In this document: positions 41,991 to 57,535 of the stretch, one piece after another
Numbering within the stretch: position 1 is the first letter of the stretch
Layout: each line of letters starts with the position of its first letter
Assembly (NCBI GenBank): GCA_017517685.1
Contig: JAFWYK010000003.1
Span: 4,860 to 68,859 of the forward strand
Direction: 5' to 3'
DNA: 64,000 nucleotides
Source of the DNA: Clostridia bacterium
Lineage (GTDB): Bacteria > Bacillota > Clostridia > TANB77 > CAG-508
The notes under the pieces: model-generated
Databases searched by the model: none
Told to the model about the DNA's origin: nothing
What the model saw: only the letters and a program-made list of their open reading frames with translations
Program-made: the position numbers and the translations under genes

Positions 41991-43370
41991 ATGAGAAAAT
42001 CGATTGTAAGAATAGAAAGAATTGAGTTAATAAATTTTAAAAATGTTGAAAATGGATGTGTTGAATTTGAAAATTCTAAAGATAGTAATTTCTTATCTCA
42101 AATAATGGGGATATACGGTCAAAACGGATCTGGAAAGACAGCTTTAGTAAACGCGTGTGATTTTTTTAAAAAGATGTTAGAAGGTTTATCGATTCCGGAT
42201 GATGCTTATAATTATATTAATATTAATTCAGAAGAATCAACATTAAAGTTCGATTTATATGCAAGTTTTCAAAAAAATGAGTATAAAATTACTTATGAGT
42301 TTACATTTAAAAAATGCGAAGATAAAAAATTTGTAATTAGTAAAGAAAAGCTATCGGCAGCCAAAAGAAAAGAAAATGAATGGTCATCTAAAGTGGCGAT
42401 AATAGATTATGATATAGATAATCAAGAAGAATTATTTACGCCTAAATGGAGATATAACGAGATATTATCTAATAGTAAAGATAATATAGTAAATCTAAAA
42501 GTGGCTCAAAAAATTACTATTGAAAAATGTTCATCTTTTATCTTTTGTGATGAATTTAAAAATATTATAAATAGAGTTGAAAGTCAGCAAGATTTAATAA
42601 ATATACTTGATGTTTTAAAATATTTTGGTAGATACAATTTATTTGTTATAAGTAGTAACCATACTGGATTTATAAATATGAACATTTTAATGCCATTATC
42701 ATTTAGATTAGAAGAGAACGAACATATTTCTTCAGGGGATATTGCTGTTAGATTAGATAATATTTCAATAGTAAAAAAACCGATATTTGATTTAGCTAGT
42801 AATATTATAAAACAAATGGATGTTGTTTTAAAATATATTGTTCCTTCTTTAAAAATTGAATTATATAATTATGGAGAGCAACTTGATGAAAAAGGTGATA
42901 AAGGTGTAAAAGTTGAATTGGTATCAAAAAAGAACAATTGTAATTTGCCATTAAAATATGAATCAGAAGGTATTAAAAAAATAATATCAATATTAAGTGC
43001 ATTAATTGCAATGTATAATAATCCTTCAATTTGTATGGTTGTTGATGAATTAGATTCTGGTATATTTGAGTTTTTGTTGGGTGAAATGTTGAAGGTTATT
43101 GAAAATGGTGGTAAAGGACAATTGTTATTTACTTCACACAATTTGAGACCTTTAGAAGTTTTATCAAAGAATTCATTGTTCTTTACGACAACGAATTCTA
43201 AAAATAGATATATAAAACTTACTAACATAAAGAATAATAATAATTTAAGATCTGTTTATATAAGAAGTATAAATCTTGGTGGACAAAAGGAAGAATTGTA
43301 TGATGAAACTGATGCTTTAGAAATACAAAGAGCATTTAGATTGGCTGGTGATAAGTTAAATGCAAGATAA
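41991..43370 (+). CDS. ABC/SMC-like (AAA_15/AAA_21-type) ATPase
   Basis: Walker A GIYGQNGSGKTALV; signature-like ESEGIKKIISIL; Walker B ICMVVDELDSGI; H-loop LLFTSHN. Confidence 0.8.
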   Translation: MRKSIVRIERIELINFKNVENGCVEFENSKDSNFLSQIMGIYGQNGSGKTALVNACDFFKKMLEGLSIPDDAYNYININSEESTLKFDLYASFQKNEYKITYEFTFKKCEDKKFVISKEKLSAAKRKENEWSSKVAIIDYDIDNQEELFTPKWRYNEILSNSKDNIVNLKVAQKITIEKCSSFIFCDEFKNIINRVESQQDLINILDVLKYFGRYNLFVISSNHTGFINMNILMPLSFRLEENEHISSGDIAVRLDNISIVKKPIFDLASNIIKQMDVVLKYIVPSLKIELYNYGEQLDEKGDKGVKVELVSKKNNCNLPLKYESEGIKKIISILSALIAMYNNPSICMVVDELDSGIFEFLLGEMLKVIENGGKGQLLFTSHNLRPLEVLSKNSLFFTTTNSKNRYIKLTNIKNNNNLRSVYIRSINLGGQKEELYDETDALEIQRAFRLAGDKLNAR

Positions 43371-44037
43371 AAAAGTTGTATTATTTATTGTAGAAGGAAT
43401 TACTGATGAAACAGCTATAGGTCATATTGTAAAAAAATTAAATAAAGATAAAAAAGTATTTTTTCAAATAGTTCGTACAGATATTACTACACAAGATTCT
43501 AGTAATGTAGCAAATATTGAAGTAAAAATTAATAAACAAATTGAATTGTGTATGGAACAAATGCATTTTAAAATTAAAGATATTATAAAAATAATTCATT
43601 TAGTAGATTTGGATGGAGCTTTTGTAGGAGAAGATGTAGTTGTGTATAAAAATATACCTCAAATAGAGTATGATTTAGAACATATTTATACTTCTAATAT
43701 AGAGTTTATACGAAAAAGAAATCAAAAGAAAAAACAAATATTGAATAGATTAAGTTCAACCCAAAGAATTAGAGGTATTCCTTATAGTATTTATTATTTT
43801 TCAACTAATATGGAACATGTTTTTCATAATCAACAAAATGTAAAAGATGATGAAGAAAAATTTAATCTAGCCAATGAAATTCAAGATAAATTTTATGATA
43901 ATCCAGTAAATTTTATTGAATTTATTAACGATGATAAATATGCATTAAAGGATACATATGAGAATACTTGGGAATTTATAAAAAAAGGTAATAATTCATT
44001 AAAAAGATATACTAATTTCAACTTGTATTTTGAATAA
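43360..44037 (+). CDS. Toprim-like protein (RloB / DUF4435 / DUF4276 class)
   Basis: Conserved Glu in VVLFIVEGITDE and DxD in IIHLVDLDGAF give a Toprim E...DxD pattern. An 11-nt overlap with the ATPase gene implies translational coupling. Confidence 0.6.
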   Translation: MQDKKVVLFIVEGITDETAIGHIVKKLNKDKKVFFQIVRTDITTQDSSNVANIEVKINKQIELCMEQMHFKIKDIIKIIHLVDLDGAFVGEDVVVYKNIPQIEYDLEHIYTSNIEFIRKRNQKKKQILNRLSSTQRIRGIPYSIYYFSTNMEHVFHNQQNVKDDEEKFNLANEIQDKFYDNPVNFIEFINDDKYALKDTYENTWEFIKKGNNSLKRYTNFNLYFE

Positions 44038-44191
44038 AGAATATAGGTTTTAATATGATCTAAGAGTATAAGTTAAAATAAATACAAATGATAATTTTAC
44101 ATGAAATACTAAAGAGAAAGCAAATTATTAATGATTTTTTTGCATTAATATTTTGCTTTTTTATATGAAATAAAAAATAGGAGGAATAAAT

Positions 44192-44788
44192 ATGACAAAT
44201 TATCATTATATGACATCAAATGCGAGAATATCAGAAATGTTTGAAAAGATTCAAACAGCTGCACAACCAGCAAAATTTACTCATGAAGTTTTGAAAAATA
44301 TGGGGTTTGCGAGTTCTAATGACAGAGGTTTTATAAATGTTCTAAAAAATTTGCAATTTTTAAATAGTGATGGGGTTCCAACTTCAAATTATAATTTATT
44401 AAGAGATACTAATAAATCAAAGAAAGTGGTCGGAAAACAAATAAAAGAATATTATAAAGAATTATTTGATATTAATGTTAATATGAATAATGCTAGTGAA
44501 GATGAGGTAAAGGGCGTTATTTCTAGAGTTACAGGAAAAGAAGAAAAAGAAGTTAAAAGAATGTATTTAACGTTTAAAGCTTTATGCCAATATGGAGATT
44601 TTTCTGGATTAGAAGATGATAAAAAAATAACAGAAGAAACTCAAGCAATTCCTATAGATAATAAATTGAATGCAGTTGAATTTTCACCTGATTTTCATTA
44701 TAATATCCAAATTCATTTACCTGCTACTACTGATATAACTATTTATAATGCAATATTTAAAAGTATAAAGGAGAATTTATTTAACTAG
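44192..44788 (+). CDS. Hypothetical protein, possibly DUF5343 family
   Basis: N-terminal ...KIQTAAQPAKFTHEVLKNMGFASSNDRGFINVLKNLQFLNSDGVPT resembles my recollection of DUF5343. Its stop lies 1 nt before the next gene. Confidence 0.4.
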   Translation: MTNYHYMTSNARISEMFEKIQTAAQPAKFTHEVLKNMGFASSNDRGFINVLKNLQFLNSDGVPTSNYNLLRDTNKSKKVVGKQIKEYYKELFDINVNMNNASEDEVKGVISRVTGKEEKEVKRMYLTFKALCQYGDFSGLEDDKKITEETQAIPIDNKLNAVEFSPDFHYNIQIHLPATTDITIYNAIFKSIKENLFN

Positions 44789-44789
44789 C

Positions 44790-45368
44790 ATGGATAAGAG
44801 AAGGAAATTAAAAGAATTTGTCTTTAATGGAATGTTAATAAAAGATTCATTAAATGATTTGAAAAAACAAGGAATTAGAGTATTTGAAGATAAAGAAGAT
44901 ATAGATATTGACAAAAGTATGGAAAAAGATTTTAATCCTAAATTATGGTTTGCTGCAAATCAAATGGCTTCAATATATATAGCGTTATATTGTGCAGAAA
45001 ATATGCTTAGAGAATTTATAGTAGATAGATTATCAGAGAGTTATGGAGTTGAATGGTGGGATAAATGTGTTCCCAAAAAAGTTAAAGATGAAGTTCAAAG
45101 ATTAAAAAGCAAAGAAGAAAAAAATAAATATTCATCAAATAGATCTAATAGTAATATTGGATATACGATGTTAGGAAATTTAACTCAGATTATAATTACT
45201 AATTGGGATTATTTTTCAGATATTATTCCTACCCAAGCATGGATTACTTCTAGAATGGAAGATTTAGAGATGTCGAGAAATGTTATTATGCACACTGGAG
45301 TGCTACCGGATATTGAAAGAGAAAGAATTGAAAGTATTGTGCGAGATCTAGTAAAACAATTAGGATAA
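44790..45368 (+). CDS. HEPN-domain protein (Swt1-like type), predicted RNase
   Basis: Rx4H motif in LEMSRNVIMHTG near the C-terminus. An alpha-helical sequence with WW.K.VP..VK is typical of Swt1-like HEPN (recollection). Confidence 0.6.
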   Translation: MDKRRKLKEFVFNGMLIKDSLNDLKKQGIRVFEDKEDIDIDKSMEKDFNPKLWFAANQMASIYIALYCAENMLREFIVDRLSESYGVEWWDKCVPKKVKDEVQRLKSKEEKNKYSSNRSNSNIGYTMLGNLTQIIITNWDYFSDIIPTQAWITSRMEDLEMSRNVIMHTGVLPDIERERIESIVRDLVKQLG

Positions 45369-45461
45369 AAGAATTGAAAAAGTTTGTAAAATTTTAATAT
45401 TATAAATTGCTTGACAAGAAAAAATATAATTAAAATAAAAGATTAAAATAGGAGGATTAAA

Positions 45462-45875
45462 ATGGACTTATTAAAAGAAATGATGCCATATATAGTCTCT
45501 ATTATGACTGCAATAATATCTGGATTATGTTCATATAATGCGTCAAAGAAACAATTTAATCATGAATTGGATGTGATTAAAACTAATAATAAACATGATA
45601 TTAATAAATTGATGGAACAACATAAAATTGATATAGATAATTTAAAAGAAAAACATAAATTAGAAATGGAAATAAAAGAAAAAGAATACCAACATGAAAA
45701 AGAAATGATTGCGTTAAAAAGTAAAGTGTTAATGGATGAAAAAAATCAAGATGTAATGAATAATGCTATGTCAGGGATTCTTGAAAATATTTTTAATGAT
45801 ATTATAACAGGAAAAATGACAGCTAAAGATTTAGAAAATATATCAAAGCAATTTCCTTCACAAGATAAAAAATAA
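45462..45875 (+). CDS. Small membrane-anchored coiled-coil protein
   Basis: N-terminal hydrophobic helix PYIVSIMTAIISGLCSY followed by charged heptad-like repeats. Confidence 0.45.
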   Translation: MDLLKEMMPYIVSIMTAIISGLCSYNASKKQFNHELDVIKTNNKHDINKLMEQHKIDIDNLKEKHKLEMEIKEKEYQHEKEMIALKSKVLMDEKNQDVMNNAMSGILENIFNDIITGKMTAKDLENISKQFPSQDKK

Positions 45876-45882
45876 ATTGTAA

Positions 45883-46446
45883 TATAAATTAAGAACCAAC
45901 TGGAGAGCATTTCAAAACAGATGTGTTAAAGATTTAAATAATCCATTCTATTTAGATGTTGCTATGTTAAATCCAAGTGTAGAAGAAGTAATAGATCTAA
46001 TTCATAGTATGGGAGGAAAAGCATATCTTGCTCATCCATCATCATATTTTGCTAAAGTAGGAACTAAAGAAGAAGTAAAACTAGCATATGATAATACAAT
46101 TAAGTTTGTAAAAGATTTCTTAGCTAAGTTTTCTCCAAAGGTAAATAAGAAAACTCCTATAGATGGAGCTGAAATATATCACCCATCATATTTAGGAAAT
46201 ATAGATGTAATAAGTGAGATAAAAGAGTTAGTACAAGCTTATAGAATAGCATCATCAGGTGGTACTGATATACATGTAGATAAGACACTAGGTAAAGGTG
46301 AAACAGTAAGTTCTGATAGTTTAGATGGAACAGTAGTAAGAAATAAATTACGTAAGTTTAGATTATTAAGAAGAAAAGCAGTAAGTATAAGAGATTTAAA
46401 AAGTAAAGTAATAGATATTAAAGCTAAAGGTAAAGAAAGAGAATAA
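45883..46446 (+). pseudogene. 5'-truncated remnant of a PHP-domain phosphoesterase gene
   Basis: The frame is open from 45883, directly after the stop of the preceding gene, with no RBS. The sequence ...NPFYLDVAMLNPSVEEVIDLIHSMGGKAYLAHP...GAEIYHPS...GGTDIH is a C-terminal PHP half. Confidence 0.55.
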
Positions 46447-46528
46447 AGATTATGTAATCAAAAATAGGAATGAATATCGATTTGCTTTAAGAAAAAATGT
46501 TTGTAGTATATAAATTTTTGAAAATGAA

Positions 46529-46568
46529 AACAGGCAATTATCTAAGAAAATTGCCTGTTGATTTTTTT
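46529..46568 (+). terminator. Rho-independent terminator
   Basis: Stem AACAGGCAAT / ATTGCCTGTT followed by a T run. Confidence 0.75.
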
Positions 46569-46775
46569 CTTGAGAAATGCTAAAATACTTTTGTGAATTG
46601 ACTTTATATTTTAGCAAGTATTATTATGTTATTTCCTATCCTCATAATAACATTTGCTAAGAGCTTTGTGAATTGTTTTAATCAACTTTTAATTTAAAAG
46701 ATATATTTTTGTTAAAATGTAATCAAAATGATAAAGAAAATTCATAGAATGCGAATGAAAAGGAGGTAAAGAAAC

Positions 46776-46994
46776 ATGAAAAAATTAATGGAAGTAACAA
46801 AAGAAACAAAAACAGGAAGAAACATTAGCTTTAGAGATGTTAAAACAAATGAGAAAATGACAAGAACAGAAGTTGTTAGAAAAATTGAAAAAAATTTATC
46901 TCATTATGGTGAAAACTATTATGTTAGAAAACAAAATGGTTTAAAAACACCAGTATCAAAACCAGATGCAAAAACTAAAAATAATTTAGATTAA
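46776..46994 (+). CDS. Small basic protein (72 aa), possibly DUF3892-like
   Basis: AGGAGG RBS. The C-terminal ...YYVRKQNGLKTPVSKPDAKTKNNLD resembles my recollection of DUF3892; weak. Confidence 0.4.
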   Translation: MKKLMEVTKETKTGRNISFRDVKTNEKMTRTEVVRKIEKNLSHYGENYYVRKQNGLKTPVSKPDAKTKNNLD

Positions 46995-47001
46995 CATTAT
47001 A

Positions 47002-47041
47002 AAAGTAACCACAATTGTTATTGCGGTTACTTTTGGTTTTT
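47002..47041 (+). terminator. Hairpin terminator or attenuator between the small ORF and the large ORF
   Basis: Stem AAGTAACC / GGTTACTT followed by TTTGGTTTTTT. Confidence 0.6.
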
Positions 47042-47065
47042 TATAATAGAAAGAGAGGTACTAAT

Positions 47066-48721
47066 ATGGCTAATATTGATATTAACATTTTTAAAGCAGA
47101 AAAATTTTTTTCATATGAAGAAATTATTAGAAACATAAAAGAAAAATTATTTAGAAAGACAACAGATGTTGGAGAATGGAATGGCGAAGTTGCCATAGGA
47201 CATAATGTATTTAAATTATGCGCATTATATGGACATACAACCAATTCGATTGATGATAAAACATGGGAGAAAGGTTTTAAAGAAAATTTTGGATTAGAAA
47301 GTTCTACAGAAAAGAATTCAAATTCTTGCTATGGATATATAATAATTAATAATTCCAAAAATAGATATATATTAACTTTTGGTAGAGGAAATTCGAACAT
47401 AACAGAGTTAATAGATTATGAATTTGGACTTATTATGGCATCAAAAATGCTAAATGAATATAAATTAAAACTACAATCATCAAAATTTTATGGATTAGAT
47501 AAGAATAAATCTATTACGGAGTTTTCATTAGCTCAATTTAGAGGTACTATTGGAGAATCAGTAGATGCTTTAATAGGAGAAGTAGTAGAATACCCAGGAA
47601 GACATTGTATTGAAAATTTACAGGATATTATAGGTAAAGAAGTAAAATTTACAACAAGTGTATTTGTTGATGTTAAATCAGAAAACTTTGATATTGAGAA
47701 TATTTGCAAAATTATTTTAAATATAGAGGAAATTTATAATATATATGGTGAACGTGTATCAATTCCAAGACTTATACGCGTTAAGGAAAGAGAAATAGAA
47801 TTATTAACAGAATTAAATAATAAAGTTAATGAAAAAATAGCATCTAGAGATTTTGAGGATGGTAAAATGTGGATTTCCTTTTATGAAGTAAAAAATTCTC
47901 AAATTTATTTTAGAGATAATATTGATGGTTATAAAATTATGGAGGGAAGAAAAATTTTAGATGAATTGGATAGCATTTCTTTAGATAATATTTCTAATAT
48001 ATTAGAAGATAATAATATTCAAGACATTAATAAAATAAATGTTGTTGTTACTGATTCAGCAGGAAATAATTATAAATGTAAAATTTATGATTTATTAGAA
48101 TATACACTTAATTTGGAAGATCCTAATATTTATTATACATTATCAAGTGGAGTATGGTACAAGTATAATAAAGTATATATGGATACAATAAATCATGAAT
48201 TAGAAAAAATTAAAAGTATTACACAATTTGATGAAAGATATGACTATATAACAGAAGATATAGAACGTTATTCGTCACAACACATTGAGGAGCTTAAAAG
48301 AATTGTTGATCCTCCATATCCGGAATTAAAATATAACTATAAATATGCAAAAGAAAATGATGGAGTTTTATGTGATAGGAATACATCAAGTGGAATTGAA
48401 GTGTGCGATGTATATACAGAATATAACGGATTAACTCATGTGAAAATTGGACAACCTTCAGATTTTATCACTTGTATTAATCAATCAATAGATGGTCTAA
48501 CAGAATATACAGGGAATAAAGTTGCCGTACAGGATTCGTTAAATATTGGTGATACCAATAAAGTAACATTATTGTTAATTACTAAGAATAGAAGTGTTAT
48601 TAGTTCAGAAGATATTACAAAATTTGATTCTTTAAAATTTAAAATAAGATTAATAGAATGGGAAAAATTTGTAAGTGGACATCAATACAATGCTAAAATT
48701 ATAATTGCAAAAAAAGTATAA
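47066..48721 (+). CDS. Large hypothetical protein (551 aa), possibly the TIGR04141/DUF6119 sporadically distributed family
   Basis: AGAGAGG RBS before ATG 47066. The family guess rests only on size, the N-terminal pattern and the defence-island context. Confidence 0.35.
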   Translation: MANIDINIFKAEKFFSYEEIIRNIKEKLFRKTTDVGEWNGEVAIGHNVFKLCALYGHTTNSIDDKTWEKGFKENFGLESSTEKNSNSCYGYIIINNSKNRYILTFGRGNSNITELIDYEFGLIMASKMLNEYKLKLQSSKFYGLDKNKSITEFSLAQFRGTIGESVDALIGEVVEYPGRHCIENLQDIIGKEVKFTTSVFVDVKSENFDIENICKIILNIEEIYNIYGERVSIPRLIRVKEREIELLTELNNKVNEKIASRDFEDGKMWISFYEVKNSQIYFRDNIDGYKIMEGRKILDELDSISLDNISNILEDNNIQDINKINVVVTDSAGNNYKCKIYDLLEYTLNLEDPNIYYTLSSGVWYKYNKVYMDTINHELEKIKSITQFDERYDYITEDIERYSSQHIEELKRIVDPPYPELKYNYKYAKENDGVLCDRNTSSGIEVCDVYTEYNGLTHVKIGQPSDFITCINQSIDGLTEYTGNKVAVQDSLNIGDTNKVTLLLITKNRSVISSEDITKFDSLKFKIRLIEWEKFVSGHQYNAKIIIAKKV

Positions 48722-48750
48722 ATTTTGGATATCAAATTTGAAAAAATCAT

Positions 48751-48785
48751 TTAGAGCTTTTGCAGGTGTAAGAGCTCTAATTTTA
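48751..48785 (+). terminator. Rho-independent terminator
   Basis: Stem TTAGAGCT / AGCTCTAA followed by a T run. Confidence 0.65.
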
Positions 48786-49061
48786 TGTCTTTTATTGTTT
48801 ATTTTACAATTTTAAACATATTTAATGTTTTAGCATATTCTAAAATGATTGAATTAGGAATGGTTTTGATATGTAATAAGGTACTATGAAGTTAAAATAT
48901 GAGATAAGTCAGGTAACAATATTAAAAATGTTTTGTTGTGAAGTATATTGCGATAAAACCGAAAAAATGTTCGCAAAACTCTTGAATAAGAAAATTGTTT
49001 GTGCTAATATGTAATTGGAGTATTGTAAGAGAAAAAATGTATTAAAAAAGGTGGTTATTAA

Positions 49062-50003
49062 ATGGATAAAGAGAAAAACGAAATAATTATATTTGAAAAT
49101 CAAGATGTAAAGTTAGAAGTTAATTTAAAAGAAGAAACAGTTTGGCTTACACAAGCACAAATGGAAATATTATTTGATGTAAAACATGCTACTATAAGTG
49201 AACATATTAGTAACATTTTTAAAGAAGGAGAATTGGATGAAAAAACTTCTGTCGGAATTTCCGACAAAAGTTCAGGAGGAAGAAAAGCTAAAATTTATAA
49301 TCTTGATGTAATTATAAGTGTTGGTTATCGTGTAAAATCAAAAAATGGTACTATTTTTAGACAATGGGCTAATAAAGTATTAAAGGATTATATGTTAAAA
49401 GGTTATGCAGTAAACCAAAGAAGATTAGAGTATTTAGAAAAAACTATTAAATTAATTGATATAGCAAATAGAATTGATGAAAAATTAGAAAATAATGATG
49501 CTAAAGAAATATTAAAAGTAATTGGTGAATATTCAAAAGCATTAGACTTATTAGATGATTATGATCATAAAACATTAAAGAAAATTAAAGGGAATATTGA
49601 TGAAAGAAAAATTGAATATAGTGAATGTGTAAAAATAATAAATACACTAAGATTTAAAGAAGAAAGTCAATTATTTGCAATAGAAAGAGATAAAGGATTA
49701 GAATCTATTATAGGAAATATATATCAAAGTTTTGCTGGACAAGATATTTATAAAAGTATTGAAGAAAAAAGTGCAAACTTTTTATATTTAATAGTAAAAA
49801 ATCATGTGTTTACAGATGGAAACAAGAGAATTGCAGCAACATTATTTATATACTTCTTAAACTTTTATGGAATACTATATAAAAATGAAAAACAAGTTAT
49901 TGATAATAATACATTAACAGCACTTACGTTATTAATTGCTGAATCAAATCCAAGAGAAAAAGAAGTAATTATAGATTTAGTAATGAATTTTTTAAATAAT
50001 TAG
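49062..50003 (+). CDS. RhuM-family N-terminal domain fused to a Fic/Doc domain
   Basis: RhuM core VWLTQAQMEILFDV...ISEHISNIFKEGELDE...YNLDVIISVGYRVKSKNGTIFRQWA. C-terminal Fic/Doc motif HVFTDGNKRIAA. Confidence 0.8.
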   Translation: MDKEKNEIIIFENQDVKLEVNLKEETVWLTQAQMEILFDVKHATISEHISNIFKEGELDEKTSVGISDKSSGGRKAKIYNLDVIISVGYRVKSKNGTIFRQWANKVLKDYMLKGYAVNQRRLEYLEKTIKLIDIANRIDEKLENNDAKEILKVIGEYSKALDLLDDYDHKTLKKIKGNIDERKIEYSECVKIINTLRFKEESQLFAIERDKGLESIIGNIYQSFAGQDIYKSIEEKSANFLYLIVKNHVFTDGNKRIAATLFIYFLNFYGILYKNEKQVIDNNTLTALTLLIAESNPREKEVIIDLVMNFLNN

Positions 50004-50014
50004 TAATAGAAAAT

Positions 50015-50049
50015 AAAAGAGTGGTATAAAAATACCACTCTTTTATTTT
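50015..50049 (+). terminator. Rho-independent terminator
   Basis: 12-bp stem AAAGAGTGGTAT / ATACCACTCTTT followed by a T run. Confidence 0.8.
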
Positions 50050-50068
50050 TACAATTATTATTGTTTTG

Positions 50069-50097
50069 TGAAATATTTTGAGATTTTTATGGACTCT
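50069..50097 (+). promoter_or_regulatory. ECF-type promoter-like motif, copy A (orphan)
   Basis: TGAAATATTTTGA (from 50069) and GGACTCT (50091-50097), offset 22 nt. No ORF follows for ~530 nt. Confidence 0.5.
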
Positions 50098-50629
50098 AAT
50101 ATATGTAGGAAAAAAAGGAAAATAAAATTGAGTTTGCTATAATTATTTATAGTAATACATTGTAAGAAAAAGATAATCATGATTTATATAGAGTAATACC
50201 TATATTTAAAAGTGATAACTTATTAACATCTGGAGTATTAATATAGGCAAAAGATGTTGAAGTTAATGAAGAAGAAATAGAAATTTGCGTTAATTGGATA
50301 CAACTATTGCACAAACAATAAAAAAAGAATAAACAAGTACAAATTCATCTAGTTCTTTAACATAAACTAAAACTAAGCTTGCTACTATAATTAAACTATC
50401 TAAAACACTAGAAACTACCGCAATTCAATTAGCATTAGTAGTGCTAGTGCCTGTTTTTACATTAATAGTAAACACAAAAATGTTTTAGATTTTAAGAACT
50501 GGTAAAAAGTTTCATAATAATCCATGATGTAGAGTAATATGAATGATTCATTACAAGTTACTAGATTGCAAGCAGAAGCTAACGAATTTAGTGCGTGTAA
50601 AAATGTTATTAAAAGGGGGAAATGTAAAA

Positions 50630-53275
50630 ATGGAACATCTTAATTTACCATCAAGAATTTTTATGTATTCGATTTGTGCATCAATCGAATATGATTTAAA
50701 AGTTCATATACTATCATATTGCGAAGGAAAAATAAATTTTTCACAAGGTATGATAGATAAAGCTTATCAAAGATTAAATAGTAAGGATGAAAAAAGTGAT
50801 GAAAATATTTTAAATATGTTAGATTTATCAGATTATATATGCATATTAGTAGATAATCCCGTAAAGTATAAATTAAATAATTCTAATGTAGCAAAAATTA
50901 TTAAATATTTCGAAAAAATAATACCTATTAGAAATAGAGTAATGCATATTAAACCGTTAGAATTGGGGGATAAGGCAACATTACAAGAAGTAATGGAAGG
51001 TATTGATAAGGATATAAAATTTATTAATTGGGTAGAAGTAATAAAAAATAGAAAATTATTAGATAATAGTCCTGAAGAATTATTAATAAAATTTAAACCA
51101 AATAAATTTAATGATAATTATTATCATAATTTACCTGAAGCTGAATTTGACGATACAGGATATATTGGAAGAAAAAAAGAGCGAGCAGAGATTAAAGAAC
51201 TACTATTACAAGATAAATATCCAGTAATATCAATAATAGGAAATGGTGGAATAGGTAAGACAGCAATAATAGTAAAAACATTATATGACTTAATCGATGA
51301 TGCTAGTAATCCATATGAAGCAATAATTTGGATATCATTGAAAGCAAGAACTTTGTCTAATGGTGATTTCGTTGAAATTAAAGACTCTATAAAAACTACA
51401 ACTGAATTTATAAAAAATGCGGAGAAAGAGGTTGTAATGAATGAGAATTTATCTGCTGAAGATAATATTTTGAACTTTATGAAAACTTTTAAAACTTTGC
51501 TAGTAATAGATAATTTAGAAACAATTAATGATCAAGAAATAAATACATTTATAAAGAAAATTCCAAAAGAATCTAGAGTTTTGATCACCTCTAGAACAGG
51601 TTTAGGGGAATTAGAATGTAGATACAAGTTAGAAGGAATGAATAAAAAAGATGCAATACAGTATTATAGAGAACTTTCTAAGTATTATGGATTAAAATTA
51701 CATAATAAAACAGATGAAGATATAAGCTTAATCGTTGAAAAAGTATTATATTCAAATCCTTTATCAATAAAATGGTATATAACTGGCGTATATAATGGTA
51801 TTAGAGAAGAAGAAATTCAAAATAATAAAGAAAGTTTAATCGAATTTTGCATGTCAAATGTTTATGATAAATTATCGGATGAATCAAAAGAAATTTTGAG
51901 ATTATTTCAAATAGAAGATTATGAAATGTCTTATGGTGAAATTTCATATTATATTGATGGAGAAGAAATTGCAATGAAGAAAGCAATTAATGAGTTAAGT
52001 GCAACAAATATGATAACCTTAAAAGATGGTTGTTATCAAATTAATATGATGGCTAAAGATTATTTAAGAATAATACAAAAAATTGATTCTGAATTTATGA
52101 ATGTTATTAAAGATAAAAGATTAAAACTAAATGGAATGCTTCAAAATATAACCGTAAAAAAAGAAAATTCTAAATTAAACCCTGGCACAATAAGTTATGA
52201 TTATAATGACAAAGATCAAAAAATTGCAGCTATATATTTGTATAAAGCTTTAGAATATGGAAAAGAAAGAGATTCGGAAAATGCGTTGAAATTTGTAAAT
52301 AAAGCAGAAGAAATAGCTCCGAATTTTTCAGAATGTTATAAAGTTAAAGCGTTTTTATATGCTAATTTTGATAATTTGTCAGAGGCGATTAAAAACTATC
52401 AGATTGCGGTAAATAAATGTAAAACAGACTTAGAGTTTAGTACAGTGTATTATGCATATGCTTCATTTTATACTGTTGTTATGAATGATAACCAAAAAGC
52501 TCTTGAATTAATTAAATTAGCAGAAAACTACATGAAAGATGATATAGAAATAAGTTTACAAAAAGCAAGAATATTATCGAGATTAGGAAGATTTCAAGAA
52601 TCAGAAGATATATTAATAAAAACAGATTATAAAAATATAAATGCTGATAAAATTAGAAATGTTAGAGCTAAAGCTATAGGTGATTTATATAGATTATGGT
52701 CTGAGATATATGGATATAGGGACGATGATCAAAAATTAGATAAGTTAAAAAAAGGTATAAACGGAGTAATAGAATTAAATAATGTAGGAAATATTGATAA
52801 AAAAACTTATGCCACATTATTAGAGTTATTAAAGGAATTATCATATATGTTTTATAATAATGATGCGATGAAACTATTGCTACAAGTATTATCAGAATAT
52901 AAGAGTCAATTAAAGTCTTTAACTGGAAATACAATGAAAAGTATTGAAAAAATAATACTATCTCATAAAAATGAAATTAATAGTGATATATATAAGGAAT
53001 TGGAAAAAATAGTAATAGATTATAATAGAATAGCTAAAAAAATTGAGAGTGTAAATAAAGGTATTGTTGCATATATAAATGATAAATATGGTTTTATTTC
53101 TAATAGTATAAATAAATCAATATTTTTTATAAGAAATAATTTGAAAGAAAATGTTAATGTAGGAGACATTGTTAAATTTGATAGTTATGTTAGTAGCAAA
53201 GGAATTGGAGCGATGAATATAAGAAAAACTGGCGAAAATTTGATGGATTTTTATGATATCGAAGAAAATGATTAA
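50630..53275 (+). CDS. STAND NTPase: N-terminal HEPN-like domain, NB-ARC ATPase, TPR-like repeats and a C-terminal cold-shock-like OB domain
   Basis: - HEPN: Rx4H motif (IPIRNRVMH).
- NB-ARC: P-loop ISIIGNGGIGKTAI, Walker B LLVIDNLE, RVLITSRT and NPLSIKW.
- Sensor: helical repeats of about 350 aa.
- C-terminus: GIVAYINDKYGFISNS...FFIRNNL...VGDIVKFD...AMNIRK.
- Start: GGGGGA RBS before ATG 50630. Confidence 0.75.
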   Translation: MEHLNLPSRIFMYSICASIEYDLKVHILSYCEGKINFSQGMIDKAYQRLNSKDEKSDENILNMLDLSDYICILVDNPVKYKLNNSNVAKIIKYFEKIIPIRNRVMHIKPLELGDKATLQEVMEGIDKDIKFINWVEVIKNRKLLDNSPEELLIKFKPNKFNDNYYHNLPEAEFDDTGYIGRKKERAEIKELLLQDKYPVISIIGNGGIGKTAIIVKTLYDLIDDASNPYEAIIWISLKARTLSNGDFVEIKDSIKTTTEFIKNAEKEVVMNENLSAEDNILNFMKTFKTLLVIDNLETINDQEINTFIKKIPKESRVLITSRTGLGELECRYKLEGMNKKDAIQYYRELSKYYGLKLHNKTDEDISLIVEKVLYSNPLSIKWYITGVYNGIREEEIQNNKESLIEFCMSNVYDKLSDESKEILRLFQIEDYEMSYGEISYYIDGEEIAMKKAINELSATNMITLKDGCYQINMMAKDYLRIIQKIDSEFMNVIKDKRLKLNGMLQNITVKKENSKLNPGTISYDYNDKDQKIAAIYLYKALEYGKERDSENALKFVNKAEEIAPNFSECYKVKAFLYANFDNLSEAIKNYQIAVNKCKTDLEFSTVYYAYASFYTVVMNDNQKALELIKLAENYMKDDIEISLQKARILSRLGRFQESEDILIKTDYKNINADKIRNVRAKAIGDLYRLWSEIYGYRDDDQKLDKLKKGINGVIELNNVGNIDKKTYATLLELLKELSYMFYNNDAMKLLLQVLSEYKSQLKSLTGNTMKSIEKIILSHKNEINSDIYKELEKIVIDYNRIAKKIESVNKGIVAYINDKYGFISNSINKSIFFIRNNLKENVNVGDIVKFDSYVSSKGIGAMNIRKTGENLMDFYDIEEND

Positions 53276-53299
53276 TTTTTTAAAATAGGGTATTAGGAT

Positions 53300-53355
53300 G
53301 GGCTACTGTATCGAAAGGTATGCTGTTAAGAGTGATACAGTAGCCCTCTTTTTTT
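53300..53355 (+). terminator. Rho-independent terminator
   Basis: 13-bp stem GGGCTACTGTATC / GATACAGTAGCCC followed by T7. Confidence 0.85.
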
Positions 53356-53492
53356 AGATTAGTCACCAACTGAACTAAACTTTGTGTATAATAATATAGA
53401 AAATCAGATTTGTAAAGAAAAATCTGATTTTTTTACTATTTTTCCTATAGATTTATAAAATTTAGAAAAAAATTCAATTTTTTGAAAAAAAT

Positions 53493-53521
53493 TGAAATAT
53501 TTTGAATACTATAGGGACTCT
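53493..53521 (+). promoter_or_regulatory. ECF-type promoter-like motif, copy B
   Basis: TGAAATATTTTGA (from 53493) and GGACTCT (53515-53521), offset 22 nt, 40 nt upstream of ATG 53561. Confidence 0.55.
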
Positions 53522-53560
53522 TTAATATTTGTGTAAAAAAATATAAAGGAGGAAAAGAAA

Positions 53561-54079
53561 ATGGTTGCAACGCAACAAAAAGTTTATTTTAGTTATTCTC
53601 ATAGGGAAGGAAAGAAGTTTAAAGTATTCTTAGAAGAAAATTTTAAGGACTTAATTTCAAACAAAACAGTAAGTGATGATGAGCTTAATCCAAAAAGAGG
53701 AGCAGACTACAGAGAAAAATTAGTTAATGAGGAGTATATTGACGAAAATACTTTACTTATAGTATTAGTAGGAAAAAGTACAAGATGTAAAAAACATGTA
53801 GATTGGGAAATATATACAGCCTTAAAAAATAATTGTTATGTAATTGGTGTAATATTACCAGAAATAAAAATGCCAAACGGAAGACTTGTATATGGTGATA
53901 TTCCAGCAAGACTTGCTGATAATGTTAAAAGTGGTTATAGTAAATTATATACATGGAATTATTTTATAAACTATTTTGAAGAAATTTTAGATACAGCTTA
54001 TCAAAACAAAATTGATTTAAAAGATAATATTAATAATAAAAGATCAATTTGGTTAACAACTGATGAAGAATACTGTTAA
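53561..54079 (+). CDS. TIR-like domain protein (DUF1863 / ThsB-like type)
   Basis: KVYFSYSH start and KKHVDWEIYTAL motif typical of the bacterial TIR-like DUF1863 family (recollection); AAGGAGG RBS. Confidence 0.55.
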   Translation: MVATQQKVYFSYSHREGKKFKVFLEENFKDLISNKTVSDDELNPKRGADYREKLVNEEYIDENTLLIVLVGKSTRCKKHVDWEIYTALKNNCYVIGVILPEIKMPNGRLVYGDIPARLADNVKSGYSKLYTWNYFINYFEEILDTAYQNKIDLKDNINNKRSIWLTTDEEYC

Positions 54080-54371: not shown

Positions 54372-54899
54372 GTGGAAGAGTTAATTAAACGTGCTCAAAA
54401 AGGTGATCAAGAAGCATTTACAGCATTAGTAAAATCGATGAAAGATGACTTATATAAAATTGCAAAGACGAGAATATCTAATGAAGATGATATGCAAGAT
54501 GCAATACAAGAAACGATGCTTGAAATGTTTAAATCTATTAAGAAACTGCGAGATCCGAAATTATTTAAGAAATGGATTATTACTATTCTAATTAATAAGT
54601 GTAATAGAATTTATAGAAGAAAATACAAGACTGATTTATCATATGAAGAATTAAATTTTGAAGATTTTATAACGGCAACATCAAATGATGTAGAAAGTGA
54701 CTTAGAATTCTATGAACTACTAAAAGATTTAAAATATGAAGAAAGAATAATTCTGATTCTATATTATAAAGAAGAATATACTGTTAAAGAGATTAAAAGT
54801 ATATTAAATATGAAAGTGAGTACAATAAATACACATTTATTCAGAGCGAGAGTTAAGCTGAAGGAAAAATTAGAGAAAGGTGGTGAGCTACATGGATAA
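54372..54899 (+). CDS. ECF-type (group 4) sigma-70 family sigma factor
   Basis: Region 2 (DDMQDAIQETMLEMFKSIKKLRDPKLFKKWIITILINKCNRIYRR) and region 4 HTH (YTVKEIKSILNMKVSTINTHLFRARVKLKE); 175 aa; GTG start after GGAGG. Confidence 0.85.
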   Translation: MEELIKRAQKGDQEAFTALVKSMKDDLYKIAKTRISNEDDMQDAIQETMLEMFKSIKKLRDPKLFKKWIITILINKCNRIYRRKYKTDLSYEELNFEDFITATSNDVESDLEFYELLKDLKYEERIILILYYKEEYTVKEIKSILNMKVSTINTHLFRARVKLKEKLEKGGELHG

Positions 54900-56040
54900 T
54901 TATGAAAAACGAATAAAAGAAATTTTAGATAGACCTATAACCGTAAGTGCACAATTTGAATATGCAATTGATACAGCATTTTTAAATAAAGCTAAAAAAT
55001 CAAATAATGTTTTTAATAATTTTTCTTTAAAATTTGCAACAACAGTAGTATGTTTACTATTAACATTTTCTACAGCGGTATTTGCAGCATATATGATTTA
55101 TGAAAATATATGGAAAGATCCAGAGAGAACTTCAAGAAAACAAAGAGAAGAAAGTGTGTTAGCTCCTATCGATGAAGAAGAGTTAAATAATATTATTAGC
55201 GAAGAAAAAGCTAAAACAATTGCTACTACAATTATTGGAAATTTAGGTTATGAGAATACAACAATTTCTGAAATTAAAATAAATAGAAGTTATGAAAATA
55301 ATGAAGATTTATATTATCATATAGTATTTGATAACATAACAATTCAATTAGATGCTAAGACTGGTGTAATTGATTATATTGAAAACAGAGAAACTAAGAA
55401 TATGATTAAAGAGAATGATCTAATTGATAAAGCTGAGGCGGTAGAAATTGCTAATAGTATTTATAAGAAAGTAGGAATTGGAAATATTGATAATTATATA
55501 GTTTTATCTAGTGAAGAAAGAGATGGCCTAGATGATACATATAAAAACAAATATTGGAAAGTAATATATGGTCTTGCGGAAGATGATATAAAATTAGATG
55601 ATAAAATATTTATGATAACATTTAAGATTATTGATGGGAATGCTTATATATACAAACTATCTTATAGAAGATTAAATGATTTGGTTAACAATCCAATTGT
55701 AATTACAGAAGATGAAGCAATAAAAATTGCTATTGAAAAAGAGAAAGAGTTTAGCAATTTAGAAATATCAAAAGTGAGTGCAGAATTAGATATGGAAATG
55801 ATGAATGAATTTATTTATATATTGGAAAACGAGAAAGAAAACGATAGTGGAAATGTACATGTAGAAGATGTAATAAGAAATGTATGGGTTGTCTATATTG
55901 AACATAAAAAAGATAATAAACCGAGAAATACGAATTTATTAACGGTTAGACAAGAATTTAATAAGAAATATTATATTGATGCAACTACTGGAGAAATAAT
56001 TGGTGGAAAAGAAATGGAATATTTTAATAGAAAAAAATAG
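54892..56040 (+). CDS. Putative anti-sigma factor: short cytoplasmic N-terminus, one TM helix and extracytoplasmic PepSY-like repeats
   Basis: The start overlaps the sigma stop by 8 nt. TM helix is FSLKFATTVVCLLLTFSTAVFAAYMIY. PepSY-like endings are LDAKTGVIDYIE and YYIDATTGEIIGG. No zinc-binding HxxxCxxC motif. Confidence 0.65.
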   Translation: MDNYEKRIKEILDRPITVSAQFEYAIDTAFLNKAKKSNNVFNNFSLKFATTVVCLLLTFSTAVFAAYMIYENIWKDPERTSRKQREESVLAPIDEEELNNIISEEKAKTIATTIIGNLGYENTTISEIKINRSYENNEDLYYHIVFDNITIQLDAKTGVIDYIENRETKNMIKENDLIDKAEAVEIANSIYKKVGIGNIDNYIVLSSEERDGLDDTYKNKYWKVIYGLAEDDIKLDDKIFMITFKIIDGNAYIYKLSYRRLNDLVNNPIVITEDEAIKIAIEKEKEFSNLEISKVSAELDMEMMNEFIYILENEKENDSGNVHVEDVIRNVWVVYIEHKKDNKPRNTNLLTVRQEFNKKYYIDATTGEIIGGKEMEYFNRKK

Positions 56041-56062
56041 TTTTATTACTAAATAATAAAAA

Positions 56063-56087
56063 AAGTGGCCACTTATAGAGGCCACTT
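56063..56087 (-). terminator. Rho-independent terminator of the - strand secreted-protein gene
   Basis: Stem AAGTGGCC (56063-56070) / GGCCACTT (56080-56087). The U-run is on the - strand only (A7 on the + strand side). Confidence 0.7.
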
Positions 56088-56088
56088 C

Positions 56089-56104
56089 GAAAGACAAGAA
56101 GGAT
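56089..56104. repeat. Left arm of a perfect 16-bp inverted repeat
   Basis: GAAAGACAAGAAGGAT is the exact reverse complement of 56633-56648. Confidence 0.95.
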
Positions 56105-56137
56105 TGCGTTAATTAGTTATGCTGCTTGTAAAAGGGT

Positions 56138-56605
56138 TTAGTAAATTTCGTGTCCATAATCCACATCTGCTACTCTATAGTTTCCGTTAGGATTGTAGGA
56201 AACACTGCTGATGTCAAAAAAGATTTGAATCTTTTGGCCGGCAGTTACAGGAAGATTGATGTGAACTTGAGGGACAGCAGCTTCTTCACTAACCGAACCA
56301 CTGGCAAGAACGTTACCGTTCAAATCACGAACTTGCACGGTAAGCTTTACTGGCGGGCAACCAGAAGGTTCCATGTCGGAACGACCATACACTTCTGCAA
56401 CAAGATGAAGCGTGCCGCTCACACCCATTGTTTTAACAGGAGTGAGATTGTTGTTGGTTACAGTGATGGTTCCTTCTTCAACCCAACCGCTATACCAGGT
56501 TTCAACACCGGCAGCAAAAGCCTGGGTAGAGAAGGCGGTGATAGCCATAACTGTGACAAGCACGAAGGCTAAGAGTTTTCTCGGAATACTAGAAGTTTTC
56601 GTCAT
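56138..56605 (-). CDS. Small secreted protein of unknown function (155 aa)
   Basis: Signal peptide MTKTSSIPRKLLAFVLVTVMAITAFSTQAFA|AG; beta-rich mature part; AAAGGAG RBS; 48% GC in a spot count. Confidence 0.7.
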   Translation of the reverse strand: MTKTSSIPRKLLAFVLVTVMAITAFSTQAFAAGVETWYSGWVEEGTITVTNNNLTPVKTMGVSGTLHLVAEVYGRSDMEPSGCPPVKLTVQVRDLNGNVLASGSVSEEAAVPQVHINLPVTAGQKIQIFFDISSVSYNPNGNYRVADVDYGHEIY

Positions 56606-56632
56606 GATTGCATCTCCTTTATTATCTCAGAT

Positions 56633-56648
56633 ATCCTTCTTGTCTTTC
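56633..56648. repeat. Right arm of a perfect 16-bp inverted repeat
   Basis: ATCCTTCTTGTCTTTC lies 28 nt upstream of the - strand start codon. Confidence 0.95.
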
Positions 56649-56775
56649 TAATCAAAAATCACGTGTAGTTACTCGTGATATTGATTTCATATCATGCTAA
56701 AAGCATATTGCTATTATAAAAGATTTCTTATTTTTATTCTCAAAATAGGAAAAAAAGGAAAAAATTGTAAATTTT

Positions 56776-56804
56776 TGAAATATTTTGATATCATTATGGA
56801 CTCT
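56776..56804 (+). promoter_or_regulatory. ECF-type promoter-like motif, copy D
   Basis: TGAAATATTTTGA (from 56776) and GGACTCT (56798-56804), offset 22 nt, 18 nt upstream of ATG 56822 with GGAGG in between. Confidence 0.55.
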
Positions 56805-56821
56805 AATAAACGGAGGTTATA

Positions 56822-57535
56822 ATGAAGAATTGTTTAATAATAGCAGATAATAATGCAAACGTAGTAAATTTAATTAATTTTTTTGCTTGTAAGAAGTTAG
56901 ATATTAAAATATTAGGAATAACTCTTAGTATAGAAAAGAGTATTAATATTATAAAAGAAAATAAAGTTGATATGATTATTATTGATTATTCAAATAATAG
57001 ATTTGATTTAAGAGAATTATTTTCTGAACTAGAAAAAATGAATTCAACTCTTTTAAAGAAATCTATAATAGTAATTAATGATGATAATAAACTTAAAGCG
57101 GAGTTAGAATCTAATAAATACATTAATGCATTTTTAATAAAACCAGTACTATATAAGGAATTATATAAAATTATTATAAAAATGTTTAACACATATAATA
57201 GTAAAGACTTATATCAAAGTATTTTAAATGAATTATCTAAACTTTCATTTAAAACAAAATATGCAGGTACGAAATATATGGGTGAGTGTATATATGAAGT
57301 ATTCATTTCGGGAAAATATTATGAATATAGTTTCTTTAATGAGATATTACCGATTATAGCAAAAAGATATAATAAATCAGAAGACAGTATATATGGAAAT
57401 ATAAAACAGTCAATTAAAAAGATGACAAATGTTTGTGATCAAGATGTAATTGTAGACTATTTTAAATTTTGTGAATTTGAAAGGCCAAAGCCTAAACAAA
57501 TCATAGATAGAGTTATAGAAAACATTAAAAAATAA
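56822..57535 (+). CDS. Spo0A-like orphan regulator: degenerate receiver domain plus Spo0A_C-type DNA-binding domain
   Basis: - Receiver-like IIADNNAN (DN instead of DD), MIIIDYS and FLIKPV.
- The C-terminal half follows the Spo0A_C pattern (KYAGTKYMGECIYEV...ILPIIAKRYNKSEDSIYGNIKQSIKK...RPKPKQIIDRVIENI).
- 237 aa. Confidence 0.6.
   Translation: MKNCLIIADNNANVVNLINFFACKKLDIKILGITLSIEKSINIIKENKVDMIIIDYSNNRFDLRELFSELEKMNSTLLKKSIIVINDDNKLKAELESNKYINAFLIKPVLYKELYKIIIKMFNTYNSKDLYQSILNELSKLSFKTKYAGTKYMGECIYEVFISGKYYEYSFFNEILPIIAKRYNKSEDSIYGNIKQSIKKMTNVCDQDVIVDYFKFCEFERPKPKQIIDRVIENIKK

Follow-up and report, generated by a model that had tools for sequence, protein, structure and literature searches.

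A candidate mRNA end-clamp formed by complementary 5' and 3' untranslated regions of a small secreted-protein gene in uncultured gut Clostridia

Introduction

Does a perfect inverted repeat that brackets a single gene act in the DNA, or in the RNA that is transcribed from it? This question is raised by a locus in a 64,000-nt stretch of contig JAFWYK010000003.1 (assembly GCA_017517685.1, positions 4,860 to 68,859; hereafter the window) from a Clostridia bacterium, in which a minus-strand gene for a small secreted protein lies between two complementary 16-nt segments. The original prediction left three explanations unranked, namely an invertible segment, a small mobilised cassette, and pairing between the untranslated regions (UTRs) at the 5' and 3' ends of one mRNA. 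Our analysis favours the last of these, disfavours the invertible segment and refutes the mobilised cassette. The inverted repeat is probably the DNA footprint of an RNA helix which, as in the hbs mRNA of Bacillus subtilis, clamps the 5' and 3' UTRs of a single message. The pairing explanation is supported by the position of the arms between a sigma-A-type promoter and a terminator, by compensatory changes among homologous loci, and by a layout that matches that of hbs.

The perfect repeat consists of GAAAGACAAGAAGGAT at 56089-56104 on the plus strand and its exact reverse complement at 56633-56648, so that both arms were found where they had been described around the gene at 56138-56605. Complementarity reaches 19 nt with one mismatch (56086-56104 and 56633-56651), and a search that allowed up to two mismatches gave no further copy of the 16-mer in the window. 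The 5' arm ends 27 nt before the ATG and the 3' arm begins 33 nt after the stop codon, the same placing as the 28 and 34 nt given before under another counting convention. The three features around which the argument turns are the following.

56633..56651, minus strand: 5' arm of the proposed long-range helix, purine-rich, UUAGAAAGACAAGAAGGAU in mRNA sense; the perfect 16-mer is 56633-56648
56086..56104, minus strand: 3' arm of the proposed long-range helix, AUCCUUCUUGUCUUUCGAA in mRNA sense; the perfect 16-mer is 56089-56104
56138..56605, minus strand: coding sequence (CDS) for a secreted protein of 155 aa, in which a beta-sandwich (jelly-roll) domain follows an N-terminal signal peptide; the CDS is enriched in GC and in C at third codon positions

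Complementarity of the arms across homologous loci

We compared 81 homologous loci (L001-L081) from metagenome-assembled genomes of uncultured gut Clostridia and from human, chicken and rabbit gut metagenomes. A complementary pair of 5'-UTR and 3'-UTR segments was present in almost every locus, in the same two places and with differing sequences. In syntenic orthologs, the 5' arms read in sense orientation GAGAGACAAGAAGGA (L001), AATGAGAGAAAATA (L005), CTCTAGAAAGAAT (L009), GAGAAACTAGGAAGGA (L069), AAAGGGGCGAGAGAA (L062) and GAAAAGGTGAAGTGAGAAAT, and in more distant members GGTTAGAAATAGGA, TTACAAGGTCAGAAA, GGAAACTAGAGGTCT, ACTAGAAAGGAAAA and TAGAAAACTAGTATT. Even close orthologs share no conserved core in their arms, and most family members carry perfect repeats of 12-16 bp with sharp ends. 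Cognate 5'/3' UTR pairs scored above permuted pairs in all 10,000 of 10,000 permutations.

Mini-transcripts of 11 orthologs, from which the CDS had been deleted, were aligned by MAFFT, with no structure guiding the alignment. From it, RNAalifold retrieved the terminator as well as the long-range helix, with double changes in 21 of the 23 pairs. Every one of the 12 pairs of the long-range helix had changed on both sides, and 90.8% of its cells were paired, compared with 55-64% when the partners were slid; the observed values were reached in none of 500 shuffles. The terminator helix was likewise conserved with compensatory changes. These natural double changes in helix pairs support selection on pairing itself. 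Duplex energies range from -16 to -26 kcal/mol across the family, with about -25 kcal/mol for the window, where the minimum free energy (MFE) and centroid folds of the whole transcript both include the long-range helix (z = -5.25).

Layout of the predicted transcript

On the minus strand, the two arms are embedded in a series of further elements, listed here in the order of transcription.

56713..56718, minus strand: putative -10 hexamer TATAAT, 6 nt before hairpin hp1
56694..56706, minus strand: hp1, a short stem-loop (ATGCT-TTT-AGCAT) at the 5' end, on or adjacent to the predicted +1
56650..56686, minus strand: hairpin hp2, with outer stem AATCAA/TTGATT and inner stem ATCACG/CGTGAT; it runs right up to the 5' arm
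56614..56620, minus strand: Shine-Dalgarno (SD) sequence AAAGGAG, 12 nt outside the helix and left free
56051..56087, minus strand: intrinsic terminator 0-1 nt downstream of the 3' arm, composed of a stem (AAGUGGCC / GGCCACUU) with a 9-nt loop, and of a U-run

Transcription of the small gene is predicted to start at ~56705-56706. A -10-like hexamer also precedes the first hairpin by 6-8 nt in orthologs, and clear sigma-A promoters were found upstream of hp2 and the 5' arm in L027 (TTGACA-17-TATAAT), L045 and L025. Two other promoter candidates were rejected. The promoter-like TAGAAA-18-GATAAT inside the leader (56650-56621) is unconserved in orthologs, and an RNA initiated from it would begin at the SD; for an upstream promoter of the extracytoplasmic function (ECF) type, GAAC repeats are present but a conserved CGT-type -10 is not.

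The small hp1 appears in both the MFE and the centroid folds of the whole transcript, and compensatory replacements occupy its position in L001 (ATGCGC...GCGCAT) and L005 (GTAG...CTAC). RNAalifold on the 5' leaders of the 11 orthologs recovered only 5 hp2 pairs, with the MAFFT anchors out of register, and hp2 was therefore judged from per-sequence folds. It is present in the whole-transcript fold as well as in the folds of individual loci, with z < -1.5 in 33 of 42 non-redundant loci and a mean z of -3.2. While its outer stem is conserved, its inner stems vary and yet stay complementary, as in ATCACC/GGTGAT, ATCATAG/CTATGAT, ACACA/TGTGT and AGAGGT/ACCTCT.

Downstream of the helix, GAAAGGAG around the SD is conserved in orthologs. 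Across the family, 14-54 nt separate the end of the 5' arm from the start codon, so that the helix is compatible with translation. At the other end of the message, the hairpin abutting the 3' arm reads AAGTGGCC-N9-GGCCACTT followed by the U-run, which agrees with the earlier statement that one arm lies directly before a terminator stem (here the hairpin at 56051-56087). Of 40 non-redundant loci, 36 have a hairpin that starts 0-4 nt behind the 3' arm. The order kept in the family is thus promoter, 5' hairpin(s), purine-rich 5' arm, free SD, CDS, 3' arm and terminator hairpin.

Two side observations concern the ends of this structure. The region 56041-56104 holds a hairpin common to the small gene and to the convergent anti-sigma gene, which ends at 56040. 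A U-run follows this hairpin only in the minus-strand direction, so that transcription of the sigma operon may read through, antisense to the small gene. Besides, the base of the helix (56086-56089 and 56648-56651) carries a conserved 5'-UUAG...CGAA-3' (CGGA or CGAG in some orthologs), with an A·G mismatch conserved in the window, L009 and L067 and variants in L001, L065 and L069. This conserved sequence may be a specific junction or recognition motif.

Comparison with known 5'-3' interactions and a proposed mechanism

Bacterial interactions between 5' UTR and 3' UTR are known from just a few cases (hbs, icaR, RNAIII), and a 2021 review was still asking whether other genes use the mechanism (PMC7821165). 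The closest match to the present locus is the hbs mRNA of B. subtilis, in which a 14-nt segment immediately after hairpin hp2 is reported to pair with its full complement immediately before the terminator (PMC5737220). This duplex has an energy of -19 kcal/mol, its formation in vivo was proven by compensatory mutagenesis (Braun, Durand & Condon 2017, PMC5737220), and it is described as restricting RNase Y cleavage in the leader and affecting 3' decay (PMC5737220). As far as this account of hbs goes, the likeness is close: both genes would give a short monocistronic mRNA with two 5' hairpins (hp1 and hp2), one arm after hp2 and its partner before the terminator, and both have a strong SD that is left outside the helix, which measures 14 bp and -19 kcal/mol in hbs and 16-19 bp and -25 kcal/mol here. 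In contrast, the gene in the window encodes a secreted beta-sandwich protein rather than the nucleoid protein HU, its host is an uncultured, very AT-rich gut Clostridia bacterium, and no sequence similarity exists between the arms of the two systems. The kind of support differs as well, being experimental for hbs according to the same account and comparative for the window, where compensatory changes run through dozens of lineages.

On the grounds of this hbs-like layout, we propose that the two UTRs form an mRNA end-clamp. Both arms would be transcribed into one monocistronic mRNA of ~650 nt, in which they would form a long-range helix of 16-19 bp and about -25 kcal/mol between the 5' UTR and the 3' UTR. 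Wedged between hp2 and the terminator hairpin, the helix would thereby close the RNA into a panhandle, with both mRNA ends buried in a three-helix junction and with the SD and the whole CDS accessible in the loop. Such a clamp would hinder the entry of endonucleases in the leader (RNase Y, then RNase J1) as well as 3' exonuclease decay, and the outcome would be a long-lived, heavily translated message for the small secreted protein. By analogy with hbs, limiting RNase entry and decay, and hence stabilising the mRNA, is the most likely role of the clamp. Good promoters, a strong SD and codons enriched in GC and in C at the third position would fit a highly expressed message; codon optimisation is not proven, as G-ending codons are also used.

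Firmicutes are known to carry other stabilisers at the 5' ends of their messages, such as the 5'-terminal stem-loops of the ermC and aprE leaders and the STAB-SD of cryIIIA, which act alone, through sequestration of the 5' end or binding of 30S subunits. The window resembles these in having a stem-loop at or near +1 and, well ahead of the real SD, a purine-rich stretch that looks like an SD, but differs from them in that a conserved segment of the 3' UTR pairs and covaries with this stretch.

The two staphylococcal cases are more distant. In the icaR mRNA of Staphylococcus aureus, a UCCCC element in the 3' UTR is reported to pair with the ribosome-binding site, and this pairing prevents translation and yields a target for RNase III (Ruiz de los Mozos 2013; PMC7821165). 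The 3' element is pyrimidine-rich in both, whereas the icaR device as described there is repressive and the SD of the window (56614-56620) lies free, 12 nt outside the helix. Since the SD is unpaired, the window is not of the icaR type. RNAIII/hld of S. aureus is a regulatory RNA in which a long-range 5'-3' helix of ~7 bp is proposed to delay translation (PMC7821165). It is similar to the window in that long-range pairing of 5' and 3' regions closes the RNA, and dissimilar in that the review describes for it no architecture joining a 5' hairpin to the terminator.

We found no description of the present element, and it matched no Rfam family: over 55900-56900, the best matches to Rfam 15 scored 11-21 bits against thresholds of 39-59 bits. 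The bacterial 5'/3'-UTR clamp is a known but rare mechanism, of which this locus is a putative new case with unusually strong comparative support. The hbs layout recurs here in an unrelated gene of a distant lineage and is kept by compensatory evolution in dozens of lineages, and this recurrence suggests that the end-clamp may be a reusable design for stable, highly expressed mRNAs in Firmicutes. In addition, the naturally varying helices of the family lend themselves to tests of how clamps block RNases.

RNA pairing or DNA repeat

Covariation is also expected at recombination sites, and features that separate RNA from DNA were therefore sought. The 5' arm has a mean purine fraction of 0.74 on the sense strand over the whole family, and this bias is strand-specific. 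Among the non-Watson-Crick cells in register, 25 were G·U and 4 were A·C, as opposed to a ratio of ~1.4:1 in slid controls. A hand tally of lenient Smith-Waterman helices with near-identical loci collapsed gave ~32 G·U versus 14 A·C, and ~36 versus 14 in the enlarged set. The closest clade (L077-L081, 92% identity) shows one C-to-T change in the 3' arm that turns a G-C pair into G·U, and bulges or internal loops occur in the helices of L012, L016, L020 and L021, the helix of L020 consisting of 10 bp, a loop and 14 bp. A comparison of sense and antisense RNAduplex energies over 80-nt UTR windows (26 versus 19) was discarded, as it was confounded by spurious terminator pairings.

Several observations weigh against an RNA clamp. 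Stricter counts of mismatches were not significant, neither for isolated mismatches with at least 3 matches on each side (5 G·U versus 2 A·C) nor for the positions flanking perfect runs (11 versus 12). The G·U asymmetry is consequently supportive and not decisive, as it appears only in the lenient helices and the in-register counts. Many helices are perfect Watson-Crick runs with sharp edges, which is how inverted repeats at the DNA level would look. Two loci, L010 and L049, have no helix, and the helices of L015, L022 and L054-L056 are no better than at least a fifth of their own shuffles. Moreover, the transcription start, the 3' end and the pairing in vivo are all inferred from the sequence, high expression is deduced solely from the enrichment in GC3 (GC content at third codon positions) and C-ending codons and from promoter quality, and stabilisation is argued by analogy with hbs, so that the helix could serve processing or regulation.

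As an alternative at the DNA level, a site-specific recombinase encoded elsewhere could flip the SD and CDS against a fixed promoter and thereby switch the protein off and on. Invertons of this type, in which inverted repeats flank invertible promoters or segments (PhaseFinder-type; PMC11892184, PMC11602134), are described as common in gut bacteria near surface or secreted functions, and the window resembles them in its repeats a few hundred bp apart next to a secreted-protein gene of a gut bacterium. Perfect inverted repeats do bracket a promoterless SD and CDS, the 12-16-bp repeats of most family members are perfect with sharp ends, the strict G·U versus A·C test is not significant, and single genes of the surrounding module have been flipped in place during evolution, namely the small gene in two clades (L020; L026-L028) and the Spo0A_C gene, whose orientation varies. 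However, the classical element as described in these sources carries the promoter between its repeats, while the promoter candidates of the window lie outside the arms, on the hp1/hp2 side. At the arm junctions, the native orientation reads CACTTCGAAAGACAAGAAGGATTGCGTTAATTAG and an inverted state would read CACTTCGAAAGACAAGAAGGATATCTGAGATAA; no junction of an inversion bounded by the repeats was seen in ~80 independent contigs, assemblies showing the majority orientation only, and the orientation of the gene is fixed within each clade. Two clades have the small gene flipped with respect to the sigma operon, and in both of them its promoter and hp2 moved together with the gene, which places the break points outside the arms. 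A Pfam scan of 29 window proteins gave no recombinase (resolvase or integrase) domain, and none was seen in the genes called at related loci, in line with the earlier remark that no invertase is visible in the window. Arms that lack a conserved core and vary between close species, that contain bulges, internal loops or G·U-type mismatches in some loci, and that carry a strand-specific purine bias also argue against recombination sites, and DNA inversion gives no reason why the arms should be locked to hp2 and the terminator within 0-4 nt. We therefore consider an invertible segment very improbable. The terminal repeats of a small mobilised or horizontally acquired GC-rich cassette can practically be discarded. 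The GC content of 45% against ~25% in the flanks, arms near the compositional edges, and a gene on the strand opposite to nearly all of its neighbours would fit such a cassette, but the arms evolve with their locus and are not common between loci, the 16-mer has no other copy in the window, and no target-site duplication or direct repeat is visible next to the arms. The conserved gene order in relatives from 92% down to ~30% identity, together with a GC enrichment of every homolog over its own flanks that argues for maintained selection instead of recent import, refutes this explanation.

A further group of explanations keeps the pairing at the RNA level and gives it another job, which we regard as unlikely. 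The helix might be an RNase III substrate, like rRNA processing stalks or the icaR duplex; it might be a regulated switch, with the clamp opened by a protein, by 30S subunits that bind the SD-like purine arm, or by antisense transcription reading through out of the convergent sigma/anti-sigma operon; or it might hold the stop codon near the start codon for ribosome re-initiation. The evidence for RNA pairing from covariation, permutation and G·U pairs applies equally to these roles. A helix stacked with hp2 and the terminator could give a long quasi-continuous duplex, and the 5' arms frequently resemble an SD, as do AAGAAGGA in the window and AGAAAGGA in L013/L017. In 46 loci the small gene and the anti-sigma gene point towards each other at a distance of 70-194 nt, and the shared hairpin has no U-run when read on the plus strand. 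Typical RNase III substrates are nevertheless longer than the 13-19 bp seen here. The SD also lies outside the helix, unlike in icaR, and there is no direct evidence for any trans factor. While 5'/3' duplexes can be RNase III targets, as the review states for icaR (PMC7821165), the layout of the window is that of hbs, where the measured effect is protection from RNase Y (PMC5737220). A more specific proposal, that the junction of hp2, helix and terminator is an evolvable end-clamp switch, either circularising the mRNA with ribosome re-initiation or being opened on demand (for instance by antisense read-through from the convergent ECF sigma/anti-sigma operon), is quite unlikely in our estimation. 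If the clamp were opened on demand, the output of the secreted protein would be coupled to the state of the conserved four-gene module in which its gene lies.

For searches that detect invertons by inverted repeats alone, the mRNA end-clamp favoured here is a warning that repeats bracketing a gene can be RNA helices. One homologous locus, the strain variant L074 (2064-2517), was examined as a possible inversion junction and rejected as such, since it follows the window collinearly over the gene, the two arms and the terminator. Right after the terminator, L074 diverges completely and has a different plus-strand open reading frame (ORF) in place of the anti-sigma gene, a break that may be a strain rearrangement or an assembly chimera.

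Base composition and chance expectation

A GC-rich patch between the arms had been noted before, and it is evident in our counts: the CDS has 45% GC (up to 50-51% in 100-nt windows), compared with 14-27% in the flanks and 26.5% in the whole window. Its GC3 is 0.40, versus 0.06-0.20 in 52 of the 53 other ORFs of the window, and C/(C+T) at two-fold pyrimidine-ending codons is 0.52, versus 0.02-0.30 in all but one of the other ORFs. The enrichment was found in every locus examined, with 0.34-0.47 in the homologs and 0.22-0.29 in their own flanks, and the patch is for this reason not a sign of recent import.

The repeat had also been called very unlikely by chance, a statement that calls for qualification. 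At this AT-rich composition, a window should contain ~0.2 perfect 16-mer inverted repeats with both arms within 1 kb, and 14% of Markov-simulated windows contained one. None of 300 simulated windows had such a repeat with at least 6 G/C, and for a pair located in both UTRs of the same gene the expectation falls to ~0.001 per window. The only other perfect inverted repeat of at least 16 nt in the window is a compact palindrome beginning with AAAATAAAAGAGTGGTAT (50010-50049), whose arms are a few nt apart. It lies just after a RhuM/Fic gene ending at 50003 and is most likely a terminator hairpin.

A second GC-rich outlier in the window is the minus-strand gene at 6308-8491 (43% GC, GC3 0.41), which encodes a 727-aa FtsH-like protein with AAA and Peptidase_M41 domains. 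This gene has a terminator and a perfect TTGACA-17-TATAAT promoter, and no complementarity between its 5' and 3' UTRs was seen by eye. In L067/L068, the immediate neighbour of the module's sigma/anti-sigma pair is an FtsH-like homolog, and this proximity points to a possible functional link between the FtsH-like gene and the sigma module.

The secreted protein and its gene module

The small gene belongs to a four-gene module (54372-57535) that encodes an ECF sigma factor, a PepSY-domain anti-sigma factor, the small secreted beta-sandwich protein and a Spo0A_C-type response regulator; its position between the anti-sigma and Spo0A-like genes is as previously described. The order of the genes is kept across L001-L081, from 92% down to ~30% protein identity, with single-gene orientation flips between clades. 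The module is uncharacterised and recurrent across uncultured gut Clostridia.

Upstream of the promoter, the region contains one more feature.

56742..56771, minus strand: phased T-tract direct repeats TTTACAATTTTTTCCTTTTTTTCCTATTTT, read from the sequence

Orthologs have analogous T-tract repeats (GAACTTTTT / TACTTTTTT), and in the clade of the window the phased repeats read TTTTTTCC / TACTTTTTT / GAACTTTTT with a spacing of ~10 nt. Distant members carry in the same place, ~90-130 nt upstream of the 5' arm, a tandem TGTCGAAAAATGTCGAA with TGTCGAA boxes. The loci listed for such upstream repeats are L018, L019, L021, L022, L044 and L057-L060. The tandem TGTCGAA resembles two Spo0A "0A boxes", and the T-tract repeats are candidate activator sites, possibly for the adjacent Spo0A_C regulator, or an UP-like element. 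Taken together, the upstream repeats suggest control by Spo0A or by the adjacent Spo0A_C paralog. Given the constant association with the ECF sigma, PepSY anti-sigma and Spo0A_C genes, and the TGTCGAA (0A-box-like) or T-tract repeats upstream, the data suggest that the small protein belongs to an extracytoplasmic signalling module under Spo0A-type control.

A homology and structure search of the 155-aa protein, which the original prediction had suggested, led to an unnamed family with a beta-sandwich and generic fold matches. The sole match in Pfam-A was Big_6, with 14.7 bits against a threshold of 27.6. Homologs form 47 clusters at 90% identity and 239 at 50%, none of which is named in any source. 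An AlphaFold2 model consists of a signal helix followed by a beta-sandwich (mean pLDDT 86), and Foldseek against the PDB returned generic matches only (TNF/C1q-like, GOLD, CBM and phage tail domains) with TM-scores below 0.5 and hence no functional assignment. Giant proteins of 1,200-7,000 aa (P0058, P0074, P0116, P0123, P0128, P0190 and P0191) contain 10-18 tandem stretches that match residues ~75-130 of the small family, implying that very large proteins, probably at the surface, also use part of this fold as a repeated unit.

An apparent defence island (41991-54079) lies immediately upstream of the module. Its genes encode an AAA_21 (AbiEii-like) ATPase, a DUF5343 protein followed by HEPN_Swt1, a DUF6119 protein, RhuM/Fic, a 910-aa NB-ARC/NACHT STAND protein with TPR repeats, and a ThsB-like TIR protein. 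A TIR gene adjoins the module in L001-L004 as well.

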